Source of the DNA: a virus
Taxonomy: Duplodnaviria > Caudoviricetes
Strand: one strand, 5' to 3'
IMG/VR virus record: IMGVR_UViG_3300021197_001693
Coordinates: 1-40,068 of that record
DNA length: 40,068 nucleotides
Under the pieces are notes generated by a model, which had not been told where the DNA came from, did not search any database, and saw only the letters and a list, made by a program, of their open reading frames with translations. Below are positions 101 through 40,068 of this stretch, in pieces. Within the stretch, counting starts at the first letter, position 1, and each line of letters opens with the position of its first letter. The position numbers and the translations under genes are program-made.

Positions 101-119
101 AGATAACAACGTGTTAGTT
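101..119 (+). other. attI-like simple recombination site at the head of the cassette array
   Basis: AGATAAC-AACGT-GTTAGTT: inverse core, 5-bp spacer, then a GTT core. This is the geometry of an integron simple site, with no attC hairpin. Confidence 0.6.
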
Positions 120-386
120 TGCTTTTAGATTCAATTGGTTTGATGTGTAATAAGCAAAATCATCACAACTATCAACTAAATCAGATACATCATCATCACC
201 CTGTCTTGAGTTATTAGCTGCTAAATTCATACACTTTTCAAAAAGCATTATTCTATCCTCTGCCCTTTTAATGTATATTTCCTGTCTTTCTTTTAACTGT
301 TTTTCTGTCTCCCCACACCCAGAAAGCGAAACTAACAACACGCTCAAAAGGACAATTAACAGTTTGCTATTTTTAATTAAGTTCAT
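114..386 (-). CDS. Cassette 1: predicted lipoprotein
   Basis: Basic N-terminus, hydrophobic stretch LLIVLLSVLLVS and lipobox LSGC. GGAG SD upstream. The stop TAA is the TTA of core site 113-119. Confidence 0.8.
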   Translation of the reverse strand: MNLIKNSKLLIVLLSVLLVSLSGCGETEKQLKERQEIYIKRAEDRIMLFEKCMNLAANNSRQGDDDVSDLVDSCDDFAYYTSNQLNLKAN

Positions 387-448
387 TTTTTTATATCTCC
401 AAGTTATTTATTCGTGGCAGTTAATTGCCGTTTAGCTAAGGGTTATGT
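330..448 (+). repeat. attC site 1 (119 bp)
   Basis: R'' AACTAAC 330-336. Left arm GCT[C]AAAAGG[A]CAATTAAC pairs with GTTAATTGCCGTTTAGC, leaving two extrahelical bases (G and T on the bottom strand). R' GTTATGT 442-448. Confidence 0.88.
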
Positions 449-1180
449 TGCACTAATTCTATCTTGCGCAATCTTAAAGTATTCTTCGTCTAACTCTATA
501 CCGATAAATTTACGGTTTAGGTTTTTACAAGCTACCCCCGTACTGCCGCTACCCATAAATGGGTCAAGAATTGTTGCGCCACCTAAAGAATGGTTAGTTA
601 AAAACCTCTCTAATATTTCAACAGGTTTTATTGTTGGGTGTCCATAAAGCTTTTTATCTTTCTTGTTTATTTGCGAGCTGTAAACCATGCTTTTGCTATG
701 GTAATTACCAAGAATCTTAGATTTATTTCCTTTTATATAAACCCAATACTCGACATCGTTTAAATACTTAAAATTACATAGTGGTGCTGGGTTGGATTTA
801 TGCCAAACGCCAACGCCAACTTGTAATTTATTGCTTTCTGCCCAACAAATATAACTAGATAGTTGCTTCATGCTACAAAAGAACACGCCACAAAACTTTT
901 GCTTGTGATCAAACTTATCTAAACAAGCATCAAGAAAACCAGTTACATCAAAGCCACTTTTACACATTCCCATTTTATCAATGTTTCGTATAAAGTCGCG
1001 GTTATCTCTATCCATCATGCCACCACCAGAATTACTTATTTCATAAGGCGGATCTGTCAATATCATATCAACACTACCATCAGGTATTTCTTTCATTCGC
1101 TCAAGGCAATCACCGTGCATTAACCAAGGTTTTAATTGTTCTTTTTCTAACTCTGCTAGCCTTTCGTTTTCGTAGTGCAT
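443..1180 (-). CDS. Cassette 2: orphan DNA methyltransferase (N6-A/N4-C, beta class)
   Basis: GDCLE...DMILTDPPY catalytic motif precedes HPTIKP and [11 protein letters not shown] (SAM binding). No adjacent restriction enzyme recognised. Confidence 0.93.
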
Positions 1181-1207
1181 TTTACTCTCCTGTATTTAAT
1201 TCGTGCA

Positions 1208-1291
1208 ACATAACAAGGTTTTCAGGTCAGACTGCCAACAGTTTACTCGTTCCTCGCTGCCTTTTGTCAGCAGCCTAAAACGAGGTTAGTG
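1208..1291 (+). repeat. attC site 2 (84 bp)
   Basis: R'' ACATAAC 1208-1214. GTTTT[C]AGG...G[A]CTGCCAA pairs with TTGTCAGC...CCTAAAAC. R' GTTAGTG 1285-1291. The arms resemble Vibrio-type repeats (GACTGYCAAC...TTGTCAGC). Confidence 0.88.
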
Positions 1292-1579
1292 TGCCTTTGC
1301 GCCAAAATGTTCTTCAGCACAGGTTTTGCAATACCAAACTTGGCAATATAAACATCTATAAGCATAAATCAGCTTTATTTTTTTATGGCAACCGCACTTA
1401 ACTGTTGTTTTATCTGCTGCCATACCCCATCCCGCCTGTTCTTTTATCATTGCTAATTGAAATGATAAAAACTTAAATTTTTCTTCTCGCTGCTCTTCTG
1501 TTGCATTGCTTTTATAAATAGGCAAACTAACAACAGGCTCAATCGGACTTGCTACAGCTGGTTGTTTTTCATCTTTCAT
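1286..1579 (-). CDS. Cassette 3: small Cys/His-rich putative zinc-binding protein
   Basis: CGC...CLYC...CKTC...H at the C-terminus. AAGGTAG SD. The stop is the TTA of core site 1285-1291. Confidence 0.75.
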   Translation of the reverse strand: MKDEKQPAVASPIEPVVSLPIYKSNATEEQREEKFKFLSFQLAMIKEQAGWGMAADKTTVKCGCHKKIKLIYAYRCLYCQVWYCKTCAEEHFGAKAH

Positions 1580-1655
1580 TGTTTTTTCTACCTTATTTAT
1601 TCGTTGTAATATTTGCGCTCATAATCCGCAAGCGCGGTTAGCCTAAAGGCTATAA
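1525..1655 (+). repeat. attC site 3 (131 bp, R' degenerate GCT)
   Basis: R'' AACTAAC 1525-1531. AGGCT[C]AATCGGACTTGC pairs with GCAAGCGCGGTTAGCCT. The R' position reads GCTATAA (1649-1655). Confidence 0.75.
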
Positions 1656-2135
1656 CAAACCATTAACTTGCTTTAATAATTCAATTTCAGTACCAAATTG
1701 CGCTTCAAATGTTTCTTTACCTGCATGAATTGCCACACCATGACCACCAAGTCTATGATGTATTGAGCATAGACCGATAATTTCAAAATTACTTGACCTT
1801 AAACCCATACCACCAGAATTTATATGATGAACTTCACATGGTAATTGCTCAACCCCCATGTTTCTGCAAACAATACAACCAAGAGCAACAACCTTTTTAA
1901 TGTGCGCCTTTTCATCTGGTGAGTGCTGCTTGTTTTTAGAAAACTTATTTTTAGTTGGCTTATATAGCATAGCTCGTTCAATTTTCTTTAAATGCTGCTT
2001 ACGGGCTTTTTCCAATTGTATAGCTTTATACTCAGGACTTTTAACTTTGGCAAGGTTGCGTTCACGCTGCCTATATTGTGCGGCCTTTGCCTTTTCATAA
2101 GGCGTAAGTTTTGGTGTTTTGTTTTTAGGTATCAT
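1650..2135 (-). CDS. Ref-like recombination-enhancement (RecA-dependent HNH-type) nuclease
   Basis: GCIVC...EVHHI...GMG.R...IGLC..HHR...AIHAG...FGTE.ELL pattern with a basic N-terminal tail. Confidence 0.8.
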   Translation of the reverse strand: MIPKNKTPKLTPYEKAKAAQYRQRERNLAKVKSPEYKAIQLEKARKQHLKKIERAMLYKPTKNKFSKNKQHSPDEKAHIKKVVALGCIVCRNMGVEQLPCEVHHINSGGMGLRSSNFEIIGLCSIHHRLGGHGVAIHAGKETFEAQFGTEIELLKQVNGLL

Positions 2136-4235: not shown

Positions 4236-4673
4236 TTAATCAAATAAATAGTGTTCATTAACTAAATCTTTAGTATCAGGAACGTAAACCTGACTGTGAA
4301 CTTTCTTTAAATTATCAAACCCATTTTCTTTATTGAATTCCATGAAAGCTTTCAAAAACTCAATATCTCGTTGTAAGTGGCCCAACTGCTTTCTTTTAAG
4401 GAAAACTAATTGATCATAAGCTTTTTGTTCAGTATCAAAAGCAAAGCGGCTATTTATTTTAGCTATACGCTTTAATTTAACACCACGCCTTTTAAGTGAC
4501 TGATACATTGTTTCACCATCTTGAATTGAAACATTTGCATATCCACACTGCCATTCAGCAATACAAAAGTGAAAGCATTCAGTTTCATGAACAGAATGAT
4601 ATTTATCTGTCCATATTGATAAACCACCTTCAGTTGGTGTTAACTTCATGTGATAGAAAACTTTAGCTGACAT
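4236..4673 (-). CDS. Hypothetical protein
   Basis: 145-aa ORF overlapping the upstream stop. Confidence 0.7.
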   Translation of the reverse strand: MSAKVFYHMKLTPTEGGLSIWTDKYHSVHETECFHFCIAEWQCGYANVSIQDGETMYQSLKRRGVKLKRIAKINSRFAFDTEQKAYDQLVFLKRKQLGHLQRDIEFLKAFMEFNKENGFDNLKKVHSQVYVPDTKDLVNEHYLFD

Positions 4674-5904: not shown

Positions 5905-6348
5905 ATGATGATCAAAGTAAATCAAACCGTTATAGATAAAGGTATAGGAAACTGTATGCAAGCTGTTTTAGCAAGCTTGTTTGAAGTTGAATTAAGTGAA
6001 GCAATTAACGTTATGGAATTGCCTGAAGATAGTTGGCATATACCGTTCATTGAATGGATTGAAAGCGTTGAATATGAATATTCTGGTGTTATTAATGCTC
6101 ACCCTGATACCAGGGAAACATTTAAGGCTTTAAATAGTGTTCATGCTATTGATGGTTACTTTTATGGTGTCGTACCAAGCAAAACATTTGAAGGTGTTAG
6201 TCACGCGGTAATAATTGATAGGGAAGGAAAGGTTGTTCATGATCCCAACCCTAATAAAAAATGGGAAGGGATCAATGTTGTTGTTACTGGTGACTTAGTT
6301 TATTGGTATTTATTTGAACCTAAGAATGGTTTTGTTTACCCTAACTAA
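5905..6348 (+). CDS. Hypothetical protein, papain/C39-like fold candidate
   Basis: Q..GNCMQA, HAVI and HDPNP give a Cys-His-Asp order. TAAGG SD. Confidence 0.6.
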   Translation: MMIKVNQTVIDKGIGNCMQAVLASLFEVELSEAINVMELPEDSWHIPFIEWIESVEYEYSGVINAHPDTRETFKALNSVHAIDGYFYGVVPSKTFEGVSHAVIIDREGKVVHDPNPNKKWEGINVVVTGDLVYWYLFEPKNGFVYPN

Positions 6349-6370
6349 TCTTTATTTCTTTAAATCTTTA
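6349..6370. repeat. TCTTTA 8-bp-period repeat (site B)
   Basis: TCTTTATTTCTTTAAATCTTTA, identical to 7556-7577 and 26209-26230. Confidence 0.75.
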
Positions 6371-7539
6371 CTAAATAGGTAGACGTGGTATTTCTCTAAT
6401 GCTTGCCTTTTCTTTTCAAATGCATGTGTCTTAATATAAGTTTCATCAAGCTTTGATAAGGCATGGTTTAACAGCATTTCACCAATAATATAATCAACGC
6501 CACTATCTAACCAAATGGTTCTGGCTAACTTTCTAAGATCATGTGCTGTATACTTTCGTTTTGATATTTTCTGAACCATTACATTTGCAGCACTTTCAGA
6601 AATATAATCACTTCTTTGTGTAGGAAATAAATATTCACTTTTGCCAATAGTTCTTATTTGATAGGTTTTGTATTCTTTTAACATACGCTTGAAGCGCTTT
6701 GTTATTGGTAGAACTAATGCTGGTGATACTCCTTTTGTTATACTGGCTGGTAATGTCATTGTGTTATTTGTCATATCAAAATAACGCCACTTCATCATTC
6801 TAGTTTCGCCTATTCTGGTTCCATGCATCAACATAGTGGACGTTAACATTTTAACAAAGGTAATATCACCTCTAATACTTCTTAATAGCATAGGAACATC
6901 AACAGTGCTTAACGCTGAATCTTTTGGAAGTATCTTTTCTTTGCAAAAATCTTTAAATAACATTTCAGAAAGTGGATTGCCGTTTATTAGTCTTAATTCA
7001 TTGGCCTGTTTAAATGCGCTCTTTAATACGCTGAATATTTGTTTAATGGTTGATGGTTCATGTGATTCAAGCATTGGCATATAAAAGAAAGTATCAATAA
7101 AACTATGATGGAGATCTTTTATTTTTACATCTTTGAATGTTGGCAATAAATGATTGTTAATAGCATTAGCCGTATTCTTTTTAGTTTGCGGTTTTTTCTT
7201 GGGGTTTTTCTCTGTGCGATCTAAATGCCAAGCGAGCAATTTATCAACCATTGTATAATGAACAGCTGTTGCCGTTGAATCATGTAAGTTAACTTGAAGT
7301 TTAACCAATATGTCAGGCAATGCTTTTTTAATGGCTGATGTTGAAACAATGGGCCAGTTACCTATTTTACGGTAATGTGTTTCACCATTCTTAAAAATCA
7401 AACCATACCAGGAACCTTTTGTTCTATCAGTTCTAAACCTAAAGATCAGCGGTAATGATTGATCTCTTATCTCAAAAATAGCCCTTTTTGAAATATACGT
7501 TTTGATAACCTTATCGGACAATGCAACAGTAAAAGACAA
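6352..7539 (-). CDS. int: Tyrosine recombinase / phage integrase family
   Basis: HGTRIGE (R), TKG (K), HDLRK (HxxR), LLNH and ETYI (Y). N-terminal arm-binding-like and SAM-like domains. TTG start. Confidence 0.92.
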   Translation of the reverse strand: MSFTVALSDKVIKTYISKRAIFEIRDQSLPLIFRFRTDRTKGSWYGLIFKNGETHYRKIGNWPIVSTSAIKKALPDILVKLQVNLHDSTATAVHYTMVDKLLAWHLDRTEKNPKKKPQTKKNTANAINNHLLPTFKDVKIKDLHHSFIDTFFYMPMLESHEPSTIKQIFSVLKSAFKQANELRLINGNPLSEMLFKDFCKEKILPKDSALSTVDVPMLLRSIRGDITFVKMLTSTMLMHGTRIGETRMMKWRYFDMTNNTMTLPASITKGVSPALVLPITKRFKRMLKEYKTYQIRTIGKSEYLFPTQRSDYISESAANVMVQKISKRKYTAHDLRKLARTIWLDSGVDYIIGEMLLNHALSKLDETYIKTHAFEKKRQALEKYHVYLFSKDLKK

Positions 7540-7547
7540 AATAAACC

Positions 7548-7582
7548 CCTTTAATTCTTTATTTCTTTAAATCTTTATATTA
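7548..7582. repeat. TCTTTA 8-bp-period repeat x4 (site C), candidate parS/operator between divergent int and parA
   Basis: CCTTTA-AT-TCTTTA-TT-TCTTTA-AA-TCTTTA-TATTA about 40 bp upstream of parA. Confidence 0.75.
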
Positions 7583-8732: not shown

Positions 8733-9258
8733 ATCTTTCCAACTCTTTAAAACGATTCATAAACCTTTCATAAGAACGCTTTTGATCCCACACTTCACTA
8801 ACTCGTAATATTTTATTCATTGGTATATGGTCCAAGTTATAAAATGTTTCATCAGTTCCAGGCATTAATAAATCACGCTCAGCTTTCAACATTGTAAGAT
8901 CAGCTGTTTTTATTTCTGGTGGTAATGGGTGCTTTACCCCAAATGTTTTGAATAAAGCAATTTCAATAATGCTTTCTATTTTTTTATAATCAGGAAGTAA
9001 ATTTTTAAGTGGTGTTGAAACGTCACCAATTATTGCTTCAGCACTATCATGCATCAATGCATCATAAGCTAAATTATCAGGAACCAAGTAGGAACAAAGC
9101 ACTGAATGTTGTGCAACTGAATAAAATTCAGCGGTATGACCATTGAAACGACAAAGGTTTGATAATGACCAAGCGATAGTTTCAATTTTTATTTTGCTAA
9201 AATTAGGGTTTAATAAATCAATGTACTGATCTTGTTTAATGTGAATTAGGCTTTTCAT
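8731..9258 (-). CDS. HD-domain phosphohydrolase (YfbR-like 5'-deoxynucleotidase)
   Basis: CRFNGH..FYSVAQHS, ALMHDSAEA.IGD and ADL motifs. Confidence 0.85.
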   Translation of the reverse strand: MKSLIHIKQDQYIDLLNPNFSKIKIETIAWSLSNLCRFNGHTAEFYSVAQHSVLCSYLVPDNLAYDALMHDSAEAIIGDVSTPLKNLLPDYKKIESIIEIALFKTFGVKHPLPPEIKTADLTMLKAERDLLMPGTDETFYNLDHIPMNKILRVSEVWDQKRSYERFMNRFKELER

Positions 9259-9884
9259 TACTTAATAACTCCCAACGATGAAAAAACTTCTTTGAACAAA
9301 TCTTTTCTTGGTCCAATGTAAGTAATAATTGAACCTTTCGTTACTTGGTTAGTTTTGTGACCATTACTATCATTGTATTGTGTTCTACCATTGATAAAAC
9401 AAGTGACACCAGCGTTCAATAATAACTGACACCATTTTTCGGAACTGTTGCAAAACGTAATATTGAGTGATTCTTTTACGTTACCCACTAAATGCTCAGA
9501 CAATAATTTTTCAATCCAATCAAGGTTACTTGGAATATCTTCAGTTATACAATGGCCCCTGGTGATCAAATTGCCTTGCTTGTACTTTGGAATACAATTT
9601 TTCTTCTTGCAAATTTTCTTACGGCCTTTTTTCGGCTTACAAGCTTTTTCACCTTTGGTAAACGGGTGATTCATCCAAAGTTTAGCGGCTATCCAAGGTT
9701 GTTCTAAACCATTTTGTTCTTCAGTGAAATATTCTTTAGCCTGAACCGTTGTGTTAGCCAACTCACAAGAAGCTGGATCCAGATCTATTTCACTAAACAT
9801 TTTATGAACCAATTCTATAATTTCATAGTTGGTATAGTATTCAACGTTTCCACTGTCTTGATTTATTAATTTTGAATTGTTCAT
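9258..9884 (-). CDS. Phage DNA N6-adenine methyltransferase family protein
   Basis: EYYT, IDLDPASC..AN, NGL.Q.W and WMNHPF (variant of NPPY). Cys-rich basic insertion. Confidence 0.75.
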   Translation of the reverse strand: MNNSKLINQDSGNVEYYTNYEIIELVHKMFSEIDLDPASCELANTTVQAKEYFTEEQNGLEQPWIAAKLWMNHPFTKGEKACKPKKGRKKICKKKNCIPKYKQGNLITRGHCITEDIPSNLDWIEKLLSEHLVGNVKESLNITFCNSSEKWCQLLLNAGVTCFINGRTQYNDSNGHKTNQVTKGSIITYIGPRKDLFKEVFSSLGVIK

Positions 9885-26207: not shown

Positions 26208-26235
26208 TTCTTTATTTCTTTAAATCTTTATATTA
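26208..26235. repeat. TCTTTA 8-bp-period repeat (site D)
   Basis: 28 bp identical to 7555-7582, located between the two tail-tube genes. Confidence 0.8.
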
Positions 26236-29924: not shown

Positions 29925-31594
29925 TATAAACCACCTAAGTTAGCTTGCATAAGTTGCAATGCGCTTTGACCACCAGTGTCAGTTTCACTTAATAATTTAG
30001 CTGCACCAGCTGCTTGTTCCATTGGTTGTGCTGAAGCGGCTATTTGTTCAGCTTGTTGTTGTTCTGCGCGTTGCTTACGAATAACACCAACCTTTTCATC
30101 ACTATTAATAATAACAGGGTTAGCACCAGTAATACGAACATATTCATCAACAACAGCATCAGCATTGATTTTATCTAATACTTCAGGTTTAGATGCAGAC
30201 AAATTGCCAATAAAACTAACACTTCTTTCAATAGAACCAAGGCCAACTAATTTTTGTGCTTGTGCCATCATTGAAATATATTCAATCTGAATTTCAACAC
30301 CTTCTAGTTCAGGTGGTGGTGGTGGCAACATGCCACGCCTATTCATTTCATCAAACATACGTTCAACAACAGGATCCAATGCTTCTTCATTTAATCGGTT
30401 AAGCACTGGACCAAGCATTAGTAATTTTTCTTCTTGGCGTTCTGCTATTTCAGTTGCAGTAACATTTGAACGGTTAATGTTAGTAATAAGCAAAAACAAA
30501 TCAGCAAAGAAAGACTGATCAATAATAGCGCGACTATCACCAATACTATTTAATACATCACCTATTGGATAGTTAACATTAAATACAGGTTCAATTTTAG
30601 CACCCATATTATTATCAGGAATATAATTAACACCACCAGGAACAAGTGAAGCACGATTGTTTCTTAATGAAGCTGGCACATTTAACGGTGGATTAACCAT
30701 TTTATCTTGTGCTTCATATCTGGTTTTGTGATCTTTTTGTAAACCACGCGCTGTACCAAGGGAAATCATACCTGGTGCAAACGAACCATAAGAATCATTA
30801 CCAACAACTTCCCAACGCGGAGATATAGAAGGAAACGTTCTAAATCCACTTTCCCTTAATATCTTTCCATCACCGTTGCCTGGTTCCCAATAGATAGACA
30901 TAAACGGCATGTTCTTAGCATCCATGCGTTCAGGATTAAAATTAGCTCTTGGCGCTATCAAATGGCGAATAGGAAACATTGATTTAAAATCTTTTGCATC
31001 AAACGCTGATTGCACCGCATTACTACAATTATCTTTGCCAAACTTATTCACTAATTGTTGAGCAGTAAATTTATATTCAGCCGCCCATTGATTAGTGTCT
31101 AATCGTTCAGAATTAGCAATACGATAAGAACCCATTGGCCTTTGTTCAAAACGAATAACTGTTTTAGGATCTTCAGCCATCGTTACATTGCCAGTGCTGT
31201 AGATTCCTAGGTCAGAATACATTGATGGCATAACGTTGTAGAAGTTAGAACGCGCTAATTGGTTTAGAATTCGTTTTGATACATCATCAAGCCATAAACG
31301 CACTGAATGAAATTTGTTTAAATCTTCATCTTCAGTTTGCAATTTAATCCAAGGCGTTGATGGGTTTGTTACACCTGCCATCATGCCGTAACTTAATGTT
31401 CTAGCCGCTAATGTAGGATTAGGATCAATCATTGTACGGTTAAAATGCCACTTCTGGTTTTCAGTGTCTTTTTCAAAACGCTGACGACCAGGATCAAAAG
31501 AACGTGAAAGCTCTCTAAAATGTGGCTCCCATTGTTGGAAAACGGAATCCATTCCACCCCATACGCGTTCTAATGAATCATGTTCGTTTTGCAT
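29924..31594 (-). CDS. Portal (head-to-tail connector)
   Basis: 556 aa. PRWEV...YG, TATEIAERQEEKLLMLGPVL and IEYISMMAQAQK. Confidence 0.93.
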   Translation of the reverse strand: MQNEHDSLERVWGGMDSVFQQWEPHFRELSRSFDPGRQRFEKDTENQKWHFNRTMIDPNPTLAARTLSYGMMAGVTNPSTPWIKLQTEDEDLNKFHSVRLWLDDVSKRILNQLARSNFYNVMPSMYSDLGIYSTGNVTMAEDPKTVIRFEQRPMGSYRIANSERLDTNQWAAEYKFTAQQLVNKFGKDNCSNAVQSAFDAKDFKSMFPIRHLIAPRANFNPERMDAKNMPFMSIYWEPGNGDGKILRESGFRTFPSISPRWEVVGNDSYGSFAPGMISLGTARGLQKDHKTRYEAQDKMVNPPLNVPASLRNNRASLVPGGVNYIPDNNMGAKIEPVFNVNYPIGDVLNSIGDSRAIIDQSFFADLFLLITNINRSNVTATEIAERQEEKLLMLGPVLNRLNEEALDPVVERMFDEMNRRGMLPPPPPELEGVEIQIEYISMMAQAQKLVGLGSIERSVSFIGNLSASKPEVLDKINADAVVDEYVRITGANPVIINSDEKVGVIRKQRAEQQQAEQIAASAQPMEQAAGAAKLLSETDTGGQSALQLMQANLGGL

Positions 31595-31595
31595 A

Positions 31596-31796
31596 CTAAG
31601 AACCTAATAATGTTTTGGTTTGCGTTGGTGCTTGTTGTGCGCCAGTTGGACCAGTTAAAACAGTAGAGCGTGAACCCTTAGCTCCTGCCCGTCTACGCCT
31701 TTCTTCATCACGACCTTGAATAGCTGCATCATCTGCACCAGTAATTGGTGGTGGTGCTAATGGCTGTGGTGGTGGCTTACTTGAACCAAAACACAT
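31596..31796 (-). CDS. Small conserved protein upstream of the portal
   Basis: MC..PPP...RRR..G..STVLTG...KTLLG pattern typical of this gene position. Confidence 0.75.
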   Translation of the reverse strand: MCFGSSKPPPQPLAPPPITGADDAAIQGRDEERRRRAGAKGSRSTVLTGPTGAQQAPTQTKTLLGS

Positions 31797-31806
31797 AGTT
31801 TACCCC

Positions 31807-33363
31807 TTAAAAAATATCATAGTCAGTATCAGCAGTTTTATTATCCCAAGGATTATAATCAGTGTTTGCAACACTGCTATTGCTGTTAAAAGTTCTTGCT
31901 CTTGGTGCAACTGGCATAGCATGTAATAAAATTTGTGAATCAAATAAATCCGTTGATACGCCAATAATCTTCTTGATCATATCTTTTGGAATTAATATTT
32001 CTCTATCACGTTTATCATGCGTATATTCTACCGCACCAATCTCTGTTAATAAATCATCATCTTCAGGTACACTACCACCTTCTTTAATCCATTCCAAATA
32101 TGAATGCGCCATGTATGCGCGCATATTAGCAAAATGTGGATCAGGTGAAGAACTAGCAAAGTTAATACCCGTTGCATTATAGCCAAGTTGACGAATGCGA
32201 TCACCTACTGGACCACCAACACCTGTTTCATCAATAAAGAAAGCATCAGGATTAAATTCATTTAATAATTTAGTAGCAACAGCAACTAATTTCATGCTAT
32301 CGCGGTATTCACTACCAGGTAAAACAACAGGCTTTCTTACTTTGCCGTTTTGCCCTGTTCTAAATGAGAATACACAATAATCTTCACCACCACGCGCAAT
32401 ATCTAAAGACATTACTTTTGCATCACCTGGCAAGTTGCTAATTTCTTTTTTAGAAGCTGCAACAAATAAATCAGTTGGAATTTTCTGGTTACTTGATGCG
32501 CTTGGAAATTCACCTTTTACACGTACACGATAAAAATCACTATCTTCACCATAATCTTTGATCCATTGTTCAAGTAATTTTTTATTGGTTACTTGAACAG
32601 ATCTTGAATCAACTCTACGACTATTCCACACATTTCTGAATTTACGCCAACATTCGCGGAAACGTCCAGTGTTACGTGTTGGATTACCAAACACAAACCA
32701 GAATGGTTCACCATCGGTTAAACCACCTTCAGCAACTTCCCATATTTTATCTGGCACACCTGAAGCTTCATCAAATAAATACCAAGGCGTTGAGTTAGCA
32801 CAATGCAAACCAGCAAATGATTCACTGTTTTCTTCACGACACGTTATAGCATCAACACGCCATGTTTCAGCGTTCTTCTTTTGGTAAAGGTTCATGTTAC
32901 CTTTACCATTATTTAATTCAAACCAGTGGCCCGTTATACACTTCTTTTTCCATTTGGCTAACTCGCCCCAAGTCTTAGTTCTTAGCTGATCACCAGTATT
33001 AGAAGTAACAACGCCCTTAGAAAAAGGGCGTGTACTCATAACAAAAAGAATAAGCCAAGAACTAGCCGCGCTTTTACCGATACCATGACCAGAACTAGTT
33101 GAATCTTTATATGGTTCAACAGGGTCTTTGCCATTAAATTTATTTTTCTTAATGTGAGATTGAAGATCATCACAAAAATTACAAAACCATTCGTCAGGAC
33201 CATATTTAGAATTAAACCTACTGGCCCAAGGTTCTTTTAGTTCTACAATTTGAAGATCGGGATCAGAATCCCAAGGAAAAGCAAACATGACAAAACCGAG
33301 TGGATCAGCATAATATTTTGAAATTTCTTTAGCTAATAATATGTCAGGATTAGTCTTAGTCAT
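31807..33363 (-). CDS. terL: Terminase large subunit
   Basis: Walker A SGHGIGKS, Walker B LFDEASG, GNPT coupling motif and nuclease LDIARGGED. Confidence 0.95.
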   Translation of the reverse strand: MTKTNPDILLAKEISKYYADPLGFVMFAFPWDSDPDLQIVELKEPWASRFNSKYGPDEWFCNFCDDLQSHIKKNKFNGKDPVEPYKDSTSSGHGIGKSAASSWLILFVMSTRPFSKGVVTSNTGDQLRTKTWGELAKWKKKCITGHWFELNNGKGNMNLYQKKNAETWRVDAITCREENSESFAGLHCANSTPWYLFDEASGVPDKIWEVAEGGLTDGEPFWFVFGNPTRNTGRFRECWRKFRNVWNSRRVDSRSVQVTNKKLLEQWIKDYGEDSDFYRVRVKGEFPSASSNQKIPTDLFVAASKKEISNLPGDAKVMSLDIARGGEDYCVFSFRTGQNGKVRKPVVLPGSEYRDSMKLVAVATKLLNEFNPDAFFIDETGVGGPVGDRIRQLGYNATGINFASSSPDPHFANMRAYMAHSYLEWIKEGGSVPEDDDLLTEIGAVEYTHDKRDREILIPKDMIKKIIGVSTDLFDSQILLHAMPVAPRARTFNSNSSVANTDYNPWDNKTADTDYDIF

Positions 33364-36986: not shown

Positions 36987-37889
36987 TTATAAAACTTCTC
37001 TAGCACCATTATGTGCTGGTGCAGTTATAACCCCTTCCTTTTCCATTTGTTCAACAATATTAGCTGAACGGTTATAACCAATTCTAAACTTACGCTGAAC
37101 ACCTGAAATGCTCACACGCTGTTCTTCTCTAACATAAGCAACAACTTCATCATATAAATGATCTTTACTTTCATTATCATGAAACAGATCTTCAATTTTA
37201 CTTTCTTTACCTTCTTCTGGTTCAGGTTCATCTTCACCAAGATAAACAAAGCCAGGTAAAGGAACAGGTTCTTCTTCACCTCTAGCTGGCATAATTACAG
37301 CTACTATTTCTTTATTAAGACCACTTACAGCAACAATAGAACTGTTAACACCACAAAACATTAAGTTTATGTAAGGCATTTTTGCATTAACACATATCTT
37401 AACTAACTGACCAATATATGATGGATTAACACAAACGGTTGAAACATCTTTATATTCCAACTTATCAAATATTCGCTTAGTGTTTGGAAAGCGACCTTCA
37501 ATATCCTTGATGTATTCAACATGATGTATTCTTTCAACTGAATCATCTTCTTCACTTTCAAAAAAACCTTCACAACCTTCTTCAGCAAACAAAACATAAG
37601 CCTTGTTACCTACGATCTGAATTTCATTAAGTGGTAATTTATTTTCAGTGAATCGTTTCTTAGATGCGGCTAACAACTCTTTGGTGATCGGAAATATATA
37701 ATCACCATCCGAATAACCAGTTTCATCATGAATAGTAACTAACTTATGACCGTCAGTTGCCGTTAAAATCACACCTTCTTCTTCTGGATGCGGTTTGATA
37801 TGAAATCCGTTCAAGTAATAGCGAACATCTTTAATAGCTGCAAAGGCAGCTAACATTTGTAAGTAATCTTTATTAAATTTAATTTTCAT
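36987..37889 (-). CDS. Beta-clamp-like domain fused to an FtsK gamma (winged helix) domain
   Basis: DVRYYLNG...ATDGH.L...GRFPN resembles the DnaN middle region. C-terminal LYDEVV...SISGVQRKFRIGYNRSANIVEQME..GV.....NG.REVL matches FtsK-gamma. Confidence 0.82.
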   Translation of the reverse strand: MKIKFNKDYLQMLAAFAAIKDVRYYLNGFHIKPHPEEEGVILTATDGHKLVTIHDETGYSDGDYIFPITKELLAASKKRFTENKLPLNEIQIVGNKAYVLFAEEGCEGFFESEEDDSVERIHHVEYIKDIEGRFPNTKRIFDKLEYKDVSTVCVNPSYIGQLVKICVNAKMPYINLMFCGVNSSIVAVSGLNKEIVAVIMPARGEEEPVPLPGFVYLGEDEPEPEEGKESKIEDLFHDNESKDHLYDEVVAYVREEQRVSISGVQRKFRIGYNRSANIVEQMEKEGVITAPAHNGAREVL

Positions 37890-39820: not shown

Positions 39821-40068
39821 TTAATTATTAAAAACGTGAACCCTTGGAAAAGCTTTTCTTATCCATTCTAACACTCTACTCCAACCAATTCTTGACTTCC
39901 ATAATTCGCTGTTAATATAGCAATCATAACAATCAATACGGCTAGAGCGTCTTAGTTCCATAGTTTTAGTTATAGTCTCACCGCAGTCATAGTCGGTTAT
40001 AGTAATTACACGCCTTAATTTTGGTGGTTGCCAAATAGTGCAAGGATCATTAGATAAACGCTTTTCAG
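39821..40068 (-). CDS. 3' part of the 108-aa hypothetical protein that wraps the window ends
   Basis: Open frame EKRLSNDPC...[14 protein letters not shown]...RIDCY...[11 protein letters not shown]...PRVHVFNN*, in frame with 79..1. Confidence 0.8.

Follow-up and report, generated by a model that had tools for sequence, protein, structure and literature searches.

A probable integrase-less integron-type cassette array in the early operon of a temperate phage, with its genes on the strand predicted to recombine

Introduction

To our knowledge, how integron cassettes first arise is an open question. It is a textbook feature of integrons that the start of a cassette matches the R'' box of that same cassette, and self-complementary ends are in themselves ordinary cassette anatomy. 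A preliminary description of one end of a virus contig noted such matches in three consecutive units, 114-442, 443-1285 and 1286-1649, and read them as the signature of cassettes integrated as circles by crossover at G|TT. The contig, here called the window, was analysed over its whole length of 40,068 bases, and all positions refer to it. The locus raises the question of whether these units are integron cassettes, which strand of their sites would be cut, and how their genes lie relative to the sites.

Results

Phage genome and position of the array

The window is a complete virus contig, a temperate podophage genome of about 40 kb, the podophage assignment being suggested by gene content: it codes for terminase, head-tail adaptor, major head, tail and internal virion proteins and lysis genes, with an integrase, ParA and a RepA-like protein as further products. 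Counterparts of the major head protein in enterobacterial and Pseudomonas temperate phages share about 50% identity with it. Named relatives of the integrase (35-40% identity) occur in Vibrio, Photobacterium, Shewanella and Pseudomonas, among others, so that a gammaproteobacterial host is likely. As the source record (L049) exceeds the window by 127 bases and a reading frame, followed by eye, runs from about position 81 on into 39821-40066, the genome is probably circular. The array appears to sit between the Ref/NinB genes and the SSB region. The whole phage genome gave no match to the integron integrase profile TIGR02249 (0 of 1 genomes) and its integrase is of phage type; the intI and adjoining attI of a complete integron were not found.

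The genes and units considered are as follows.
114..442, site polarity plus: cassette 1; locus L148 is 69% identical over 135-446, gene and own attC together
114..386, minus strand: 90-aa predicted lipoprotein (phrog_10627, E 1e-5; lipobox read from the sequence)
443..1285, plus: cassette 2, bounded by G|TT at both ends
443..1180, minus strand: N6/N4 DNA methyltransferase, 245 aa (PF01555, E 9e-29), with its own ribosome site after R''
1286..1649, plus: cassette 3, right junction mutated
1286..1579, minus strand: 97-aa Cys-rich protein of no known family, its start and about 16 codons within attC3
1650..2135, minus strand: Ref-like nuclease (PF16786), a fixed phage gene whose TAG stop lies exactly at the right junction of the array
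6352..7539, minus strand: phage integrase, ordinary phage type, not an integron integrase

Several features outside the array were recorded. Integrase, ParA with a small partner gene and an IncFII RepA-like initiator occur in this one genome (6352-8479 and 10715-11575), which makes the phage a candidate integrating phage-plasmid. An exact 28-nt repeat is present upstream of the integrase (7555-7582) and between two tail genes (26208-26235), with a partial, 82% copy at the integrase stop (6348-6375); it is possibly an att or regulatory site. A second DNA methyltransferase (9258-9884) adjoins a nucleotide phosphatase-like gene, and 36987-37889 encodes a 300-aa protein whose N-terminal part is RusA-like and whose C-terminal tail is FtsK-like. 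The Ref relatives P0002, P0003 and P0005 have C-termini KEN or NEN, which fits an AACTAAC junction at the stop, as if an array lay at the same stop codon there.

Cassettes, genes and attC sites

The three proposed units were supported. All three genes lie on the minus strand, which is the bottom strand of the sites, so the canonical layout of a top-strand gene with attC at its 3' end failed in three of three, and the TAA stop of each gene forms the first three bases of its own cassette. The ORFs at 114-386 and 1286-1579 have their starts within the attC of their own cassette and continue through L'' and R''; for the lipoprotein gene, attC1 holds the ribosome site, the start codon and most of the signal peptide. 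Across 33 sites with a downstream ORF in all fetched loci, start positions were only inside the site in 5, both inside and after it in 1, after it in 20 and neither in 7. The lipoprotein is likely a surface protein and, from an EexN match below the cut-off (E 0.0098), perhaps one with an exclusion role; its homolog in L148 ends TAGA. The methyltransferase is likely an orphan enzyme countering host restriction, a role proposed for phage cassette methyltransferases in the available text of Qi et al. 2023 (PMC9892861). Searches found no viral loci for genes 1 and 3 and no homolog for the body of cassette 3.

The sites and junctions were assigned as follows, with extra bases numbered from R''.
113|114 (104..119), plus: left junction G|TT, with a probable attC remnant just before it (4 nt of L' and a 5-nt spacer) and no full hairpin
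330..448, plus: attC1; R'' 330-336, extra bases 345 and 352 (bottom-strand G16, T23), L' 430-436, R' 442-448
1208..1291, plus: attC2; R'' 1208-1214, extra bases 1223, 1227 and 1231 (G16, A20, T24), R' 1285-1291
1525..1655, plus: attC3; R'' 1525-1531, extra base 1540 (G16), second position 1547 (23), 6-nt spacer, R' mutated to G|CTA at 1649|1650

Polarity was read with a template score made for this analysis, which gave 13.5, 11.5 and 10.0 for attC1, attC2 and attC3 with the plus strand as top, against -0.5, 1.0 and 4.5 in reverse; these scores and the bulge positions support the attC anatomy, with plus as top strand, that had been claimed. In all three sites the bulged bases lie on the opposite arm from the bottom-strand AAC, with L''/L' pairing and an unpaired spacer of 5-6 nt, and AAC/GTT is conserved in the R''/R' cores of attC1 and attC2. 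Outer positions of these two cores deviate slightly from RYYYAAC / GTTRRRY, which we take to be the consensus. The R''-L''-L'-R' layout, the G|TT crossover and the bulges at 16/23 and 16/20/24 are shared with the integron sites attCaadA7, attCoxa2 and VCR as described in the available text of PMC5027507, where G16/T23 is the attCaadA7 pattern, G16/A20/T24 that of attCoxa2, and the strand that recombines, the bottom one, is recognised by bulges on the opposite arm from AAC. Bulge position ruled out a reading of the array as minus-strand cassettes of normal layout, and family alignment ruled out 1637 as R' of attC3.

In attC3 the bottom-strand AAC at R' is replaced by AGC: the gene strand reads TAAC in five of five relatives and TAGC, the stop of the Ref gene, in the window. 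Judged by its sequence, attC3 is a damaged member of the attC class, and the third unit holds at 1286-1649 except that its right junction reads G|CTA rather than G|TTA. With three sites in 1.4 kb by our own scoring and no intI, the array qualifies as a CALIN. The three sites belong to different families, and neither attC1 nor attC3 had a meaningful match among annotated phages. The outer arms of attC2 resemble the upstream core of L001 and L013 and its interior the downstream core of L001; it is possibly a mosaic site.

Self-matching cassette ends

The three reported matches proved exact (113-120 with 329-336, 8/8; 442-458 with 1198-1214, 16/17; 1285-1296 with 1520-1531, 11/12), each cassette start being complementary to its own R'' as in integron cassettes. 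Chance was assessed over a fixed interval, positions 5-12, past the common GTTA/TAAC core, where cassettes 1, 2 and 3 matched their own junction at 5/8, 8/8 and 7/8 (binomial p 0.038, 2.8e-5 and 6.4e-4). Elsewhere in the window, 1,889 GTTA..TAAC pairs spaced 100-1300 nt apart reached at least 5/8 in 3.7%, at least 7/8 in 0.16% and 8/8 in none. The matches of cassettes 2 and 3 are clearly beyond chance; that of cassette 1, which a 1-nt shift lengthens, is weakly so on the fixed test. Matches to the adjacent R' were 2/8, 3/8 and 0/8, which bears out the claim that the extended complementarity is with the cassette's own junction. Of the 33 sites, 15 precede an ORF not ending in TAAC, and the 18 with TAAC-ending ORFs were scored as cassettes: the own end exceeded the adjacent R' in 16, was worse in one and tied in one (p 6e-4), with mean matches of 5.7 and 3.3 of 8 (mean 3.2 and maximum 4.5 in 10,000 permutations). 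Within the attC3 family, the R'' flank varies together with each gene's own end, four members matching at 11/12, 11/12, 11/12 and 10/12 and the fifth, which ends TAAT, not at all.

Terminators or chance hairpins would also produce inverted repeats here, hairpins between genes being common and the fixed-interval match of cassette 1 having p 0.038, but we regard this as the least probable of the explanations considered: no terminator-like site was found in 1-2000 and no Rfam match in 1-2500, two of the sites are translated, and the match and polarity statistics run against it, in agreement with the dismissal of such hairpins from the outset. Promoter-like sites were not enriched over shuffles (15 vs 21).

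One use made of the complementarity failed, namely as proof of which strand is cut or which gene owns an attC, since the match reads alike on both strands. It is a strand-symmetric property of the two ends of the gene body and therefore by itself reveals neither the cut strand nor the attC's gene; the bulged bases settle both.

Boundaries in homologous segments

Homologous segments elsewhere end at G|TT, as the preliminary description had predicted, and were not found to have boundaries unrelated to the core sites. L001 is 91.5% identical to the methyltransferase cassette over 441-1224 and has a new flank directly after TAAC. In 16 cassette loci, pairwise identity was 0.88-1.0 over the 16 bases through the C of TAAC and 0.26-0.66 over the following 14. 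The homologs of the methyltransferase, 108 distinct ones counting the window's own record, fall into 28 with a TAAC end and 80 lacking it, some of the latter being 77-87% identical; a self-matching start of at least 10/12 was present in 16 of the 28 against 1 of the 80, and cassette ends were found in none of nine genome matches of the methyltransferase.

Seven sequencing runs had matches (best share 0.12), no RNA run among them, and contigs from X1-X5 were examined, X5 yielding none. One X3 contig matches 113-213 and breaks at exactly 113, with another apparent attC arm leftward, and an X1 contig matches from 104 with a leftward continuation like an attC arm. Units running from G|TT to G|TT between different neighbours were thus found for cassette 2 (L001 and the 16 loci) and cassette 1 (run contigs). 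The X1-X5 contigs held no joint skipping a whole cassette, only replacements of the methyltransferase interior, and are uninformative on excision. No excised circle or empty site of this phage was seen, and although Ref-related proteins 61-83% identical exist, scans by Ref gene and Ref alignment gave no close phage relative for an empty-site comparison. The claim of real excision and integration units therefore stands as a record of past recombination; as to present activity, excised forms were not observed and the cleavage triplet is missing from attC3.

The hairpins might instead be linkers for homologous or illegitimate phage recombination, or for a recombinase other than an integron integrase, a reading favoured by the lack of IntI in the genome, by the location among Ref, NinB and SSB genes and by the exchange of methyltransferase interiors between conserved ends. 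We consider it unlikely, however, as unrelated cores join the same gene end at a boundary sharp to one base with TAAC alone in common, the bulges occupy IntI-specific positions, and phage sites of this polarity are IntI1 substrates.

Folding in the array and as circles

Circularising 114-442, 443-1285 and 1286-1649 in silico, as had been proposed, gave predicted folds far better than those of the array. On the bottom strand, core pairing probability rose from 0.13 in the array to 0.96 in the circle for attC1, from 0.24 to 0.96 for attC2 and from 0.00 to 0.42 for attC3; best energies went from -8.3 to -15.0 kcal/mol (attC1) and from -11.6 to -22.0 kcal/mol (attC2), and the core-forced energy of attC3 from -2.5 to -13.1 kcal/mol. 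In the circular forms, bottom and top strands were at -15.0 vs -16.6, -22.0 vs -21.2 and -13.5 vs -13.8 kcal/mol. The top strand gains about equally from circularising, so fold energy is no strand marker and polarity rests on bulge position.

Reversed polarity in other phages

At 316 distinct stop-TAAC anchors, from loci that are not independent because they were chosen by likeness to the array or to one site family, the gene strand was the bottom strand at 41 sites and the opposite at 4 (shuffled anchors, 0 and 0 of 195); three of the four are short, probably spurious antisense frames and one is a real normal-polarity gene. Given this choice of loci, a motif not taken from the window was also run; derived from reversed-class sites, mostly of one family, it gave 121 loci, 108 of them distinct and 25 with a site call, where the gene was on the bottom strand in 20, on the top in 0 and unclear in 5. 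Reversed polarity is general in the loci examined. In phage PH101, the bottom strand of the sites recombined by IntI1 is the strand of the flanking genes; according to the available text of PMC9892861, these sites recombine with IntI1 better through the bottom strand than the top. TJE1 has normal polarity. Read from the sequence, the R'' flank in PH101 (L047, about 30900-33000) matches the end of the next junction. L077 carries a normal-polarity, bacterial-type cassette with a long attC within a reversed phage array (4605-5069, minus strand, site at about 4505-4610), its gene opposing the phage genes and having no Pfam match.

The array could in principle be a decaying fragment of a bacterial chromosomal integron, passively captured; both its ends are degenerate, and the available text of PMC9892861 describes similar captures for Vibrio anguillarum prophages. 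This is very improbable, since the genes follow phage transcription and oppose the site polarity, gene and site relatives are found in phage contigs while the genome matches of the methyltransferase lack cassette ends, and the three sites are of different families.

Shared leaders and re-linking of attC cores

The attC1 core with its R'' flank encodes a predicted lipoprotein-type signal peptide common to ten proteins, whose mature domains form eight groups with between-group similarity never better than E 0.05; in nine of the ten the C-terminus is KAN or KAH, which is the matching arm. The groups appear unrelated, deep homology of such short domains being possible. The attC3 core is likewise found in other contigs at the head of various gene bodies, to which it is fused in four cases and not in one, and run contigs hold attC1 (330-437) and attC3 (1525-1653) with other flanks.

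On whether an attC stays with its gene, as had been assumed, the picture is mixed: the bond is kept within subgroups (L001 and others) and in L148, but there is no overall correlation and homology also drops at R''. Both sites could be called in 11 of 19 methyltransferase cassettes, for which a Mantel test gave rho -0.05 to 0.08 (p 0.30-0.57). Since the gene is tracked by neither of the attC sites that flank it, the link between attC and gene is not permanent, and as the cores do not track the gene ends, the body from GTT to AAC is the most stable module. Cores would thus have been exchanged at R'' over time, and low-level top-strand recombination, reported for two-bulge sites in the available text of PMC5027507, would yield such exchange. 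Methyltransferase cassettes only 32-46% identical share identical ends, whereas the homologs 77-87% identical do not have them, which suggests that interiors were swapped into a fixed frame. The cores found in one methyltransferase frame are 32% to 96% identical. A tandem pair of methyltransferase cassettes with identical ends is present in L067 (892-2438).

These data also bear on the mirror arrangement, in which a gene would move together with the site that follows it in gene direction, the layout being normal with the bulges on the other arm, and crossover would be at R''. Self-matching ends suit either unit, homology breaks at R'' too with one attC core heading unrelated bodies, upstream cores do not track the gene overall, and two-bulge sites allow some top-strand recombination (PMC5027507, available text). 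We nevertheless give this arrangement a low probability: the bulges lie on the arm opposite the coding-strand AAC, making the coding strand the bottom strand, as validated for the PH101 sites; two genes would lose their start codon; and the window, L001, L013 and L072 share the outer arms of the upstream core, whereas the first three of them have differing downstream cores (that of L072 is cut off).

Discussion

The locus is probably best explained as a three-cassette, integrase-less integron-type array in the early operon of a temperate phage, with its genes on the strand predicted to fold and recombine. It appears to work like an integron array, but is neither a complete integron nor of canonical layout. 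We propose that a host integron integrase would cut the folded bottom strand at AA|C; the bottom strand being the coding strand, the cut would land just behind a TAA stop, and a circle could insert without breaking the upstream gene. A circle of attC core, gene and TAA could in this way enter behind any gene ending in TAAC and leave that gene whole, the inserted gene being read off the phage's own early transcript with attC as its 5' leader. The self-matching ends would form the outer stem and so turn the excised circle into a good substrate, the array form being predicted to fold poorly. Over longer times, attC cores may be re-linked to other bodies at R'' by rare top-strand recombination, and payloads exchanged between the conserved ends.

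Two properties of the strand choice are consistent with this scheme. As attC bottom strands are purine-rich (PMC5027507, available text), they would readily accommodate a ribosome site in the loop. Should replication proceed in the direction of transcription, the coding strand would be the lagging-strand template, a placement that chromosomal integrons avoid since it raises excision (PMC8946536, available text); the GC skew of the window fits this, or may be coding bias. The AGC for AAC in attC3 and the missing hairpin at the left junction leave cassettes 3 and 1 each with one damaged partner, so that only cassette 2, with two intact sites, probably has the capacity for excision today.

Compared with ordinary integron cassettes, the gene is here on the bottom strand with its stop codon in R' rather than near R'', and the site is a 5' leader that can hold the start codon and signal peptide; compared with complete integrons, no attI, Pc or intI was found, intI being covered by a profile search. 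Phage CALINs (Qi et al. 2023, PMC9892861) are likewise integrase-less attC clusters, often with DNA methyltransferases, and five of six tested sites recombined with IntI1, the available text describing neither gene-versus-site polarity, attC-internal starts nor shared leaders. Phage CALINs with methyltransferases are thus already known; reversed phage cassettes, attC-internal leaders and shared signal peptides were not found described in the literature covered, in which subscription titles were mostly not included, and the figures or data of Qi et al. may show ORF directions. IntI also inserts cassettes at simple double-stranded attG sites (Loot et al., bioRxiv 10.1101/2022.09.11.507474), described in the available text for bacterial chromosomes and normal cassettes; such insertion could start off an array at a stop codon, for instance the one of Ref. 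According to the available text of a review (PMC8876359), short ORFs within attC aid translation of the next cassette; attC is translated there as here, but as separate ORFs in the normal layout, whereas in this array the bottom strand of the site codes for the N-terminus of the protein of its own cassette.

A broader model, which we put forward tentatively and hold to be rather less probable than its alternative, is a phage pool of back-to-front cassettes, where attC core and self-matching ends would form a reusable frame (ribosome site, start, export signal) whose payloads are swapped and cores re-linked at R'', a host integrase inserting the products behind TAAC. One attC-encoded signal peptide with mostly matching ends at the head of eight dissimilar payload groups, and a methyltransferase frame with varied cores and close homologs outside cassettes, both lead to this cassette-building model, which is testable. 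If it is true, phages would count among the settings in which new cassettes are assembled, and such arrays can also take in normal bacterial cassettes, as in L077. Reversed polarity may allow phages to recruit the host integrase for bringing anti-restriction and surface genes into the early operon with no gene broken.
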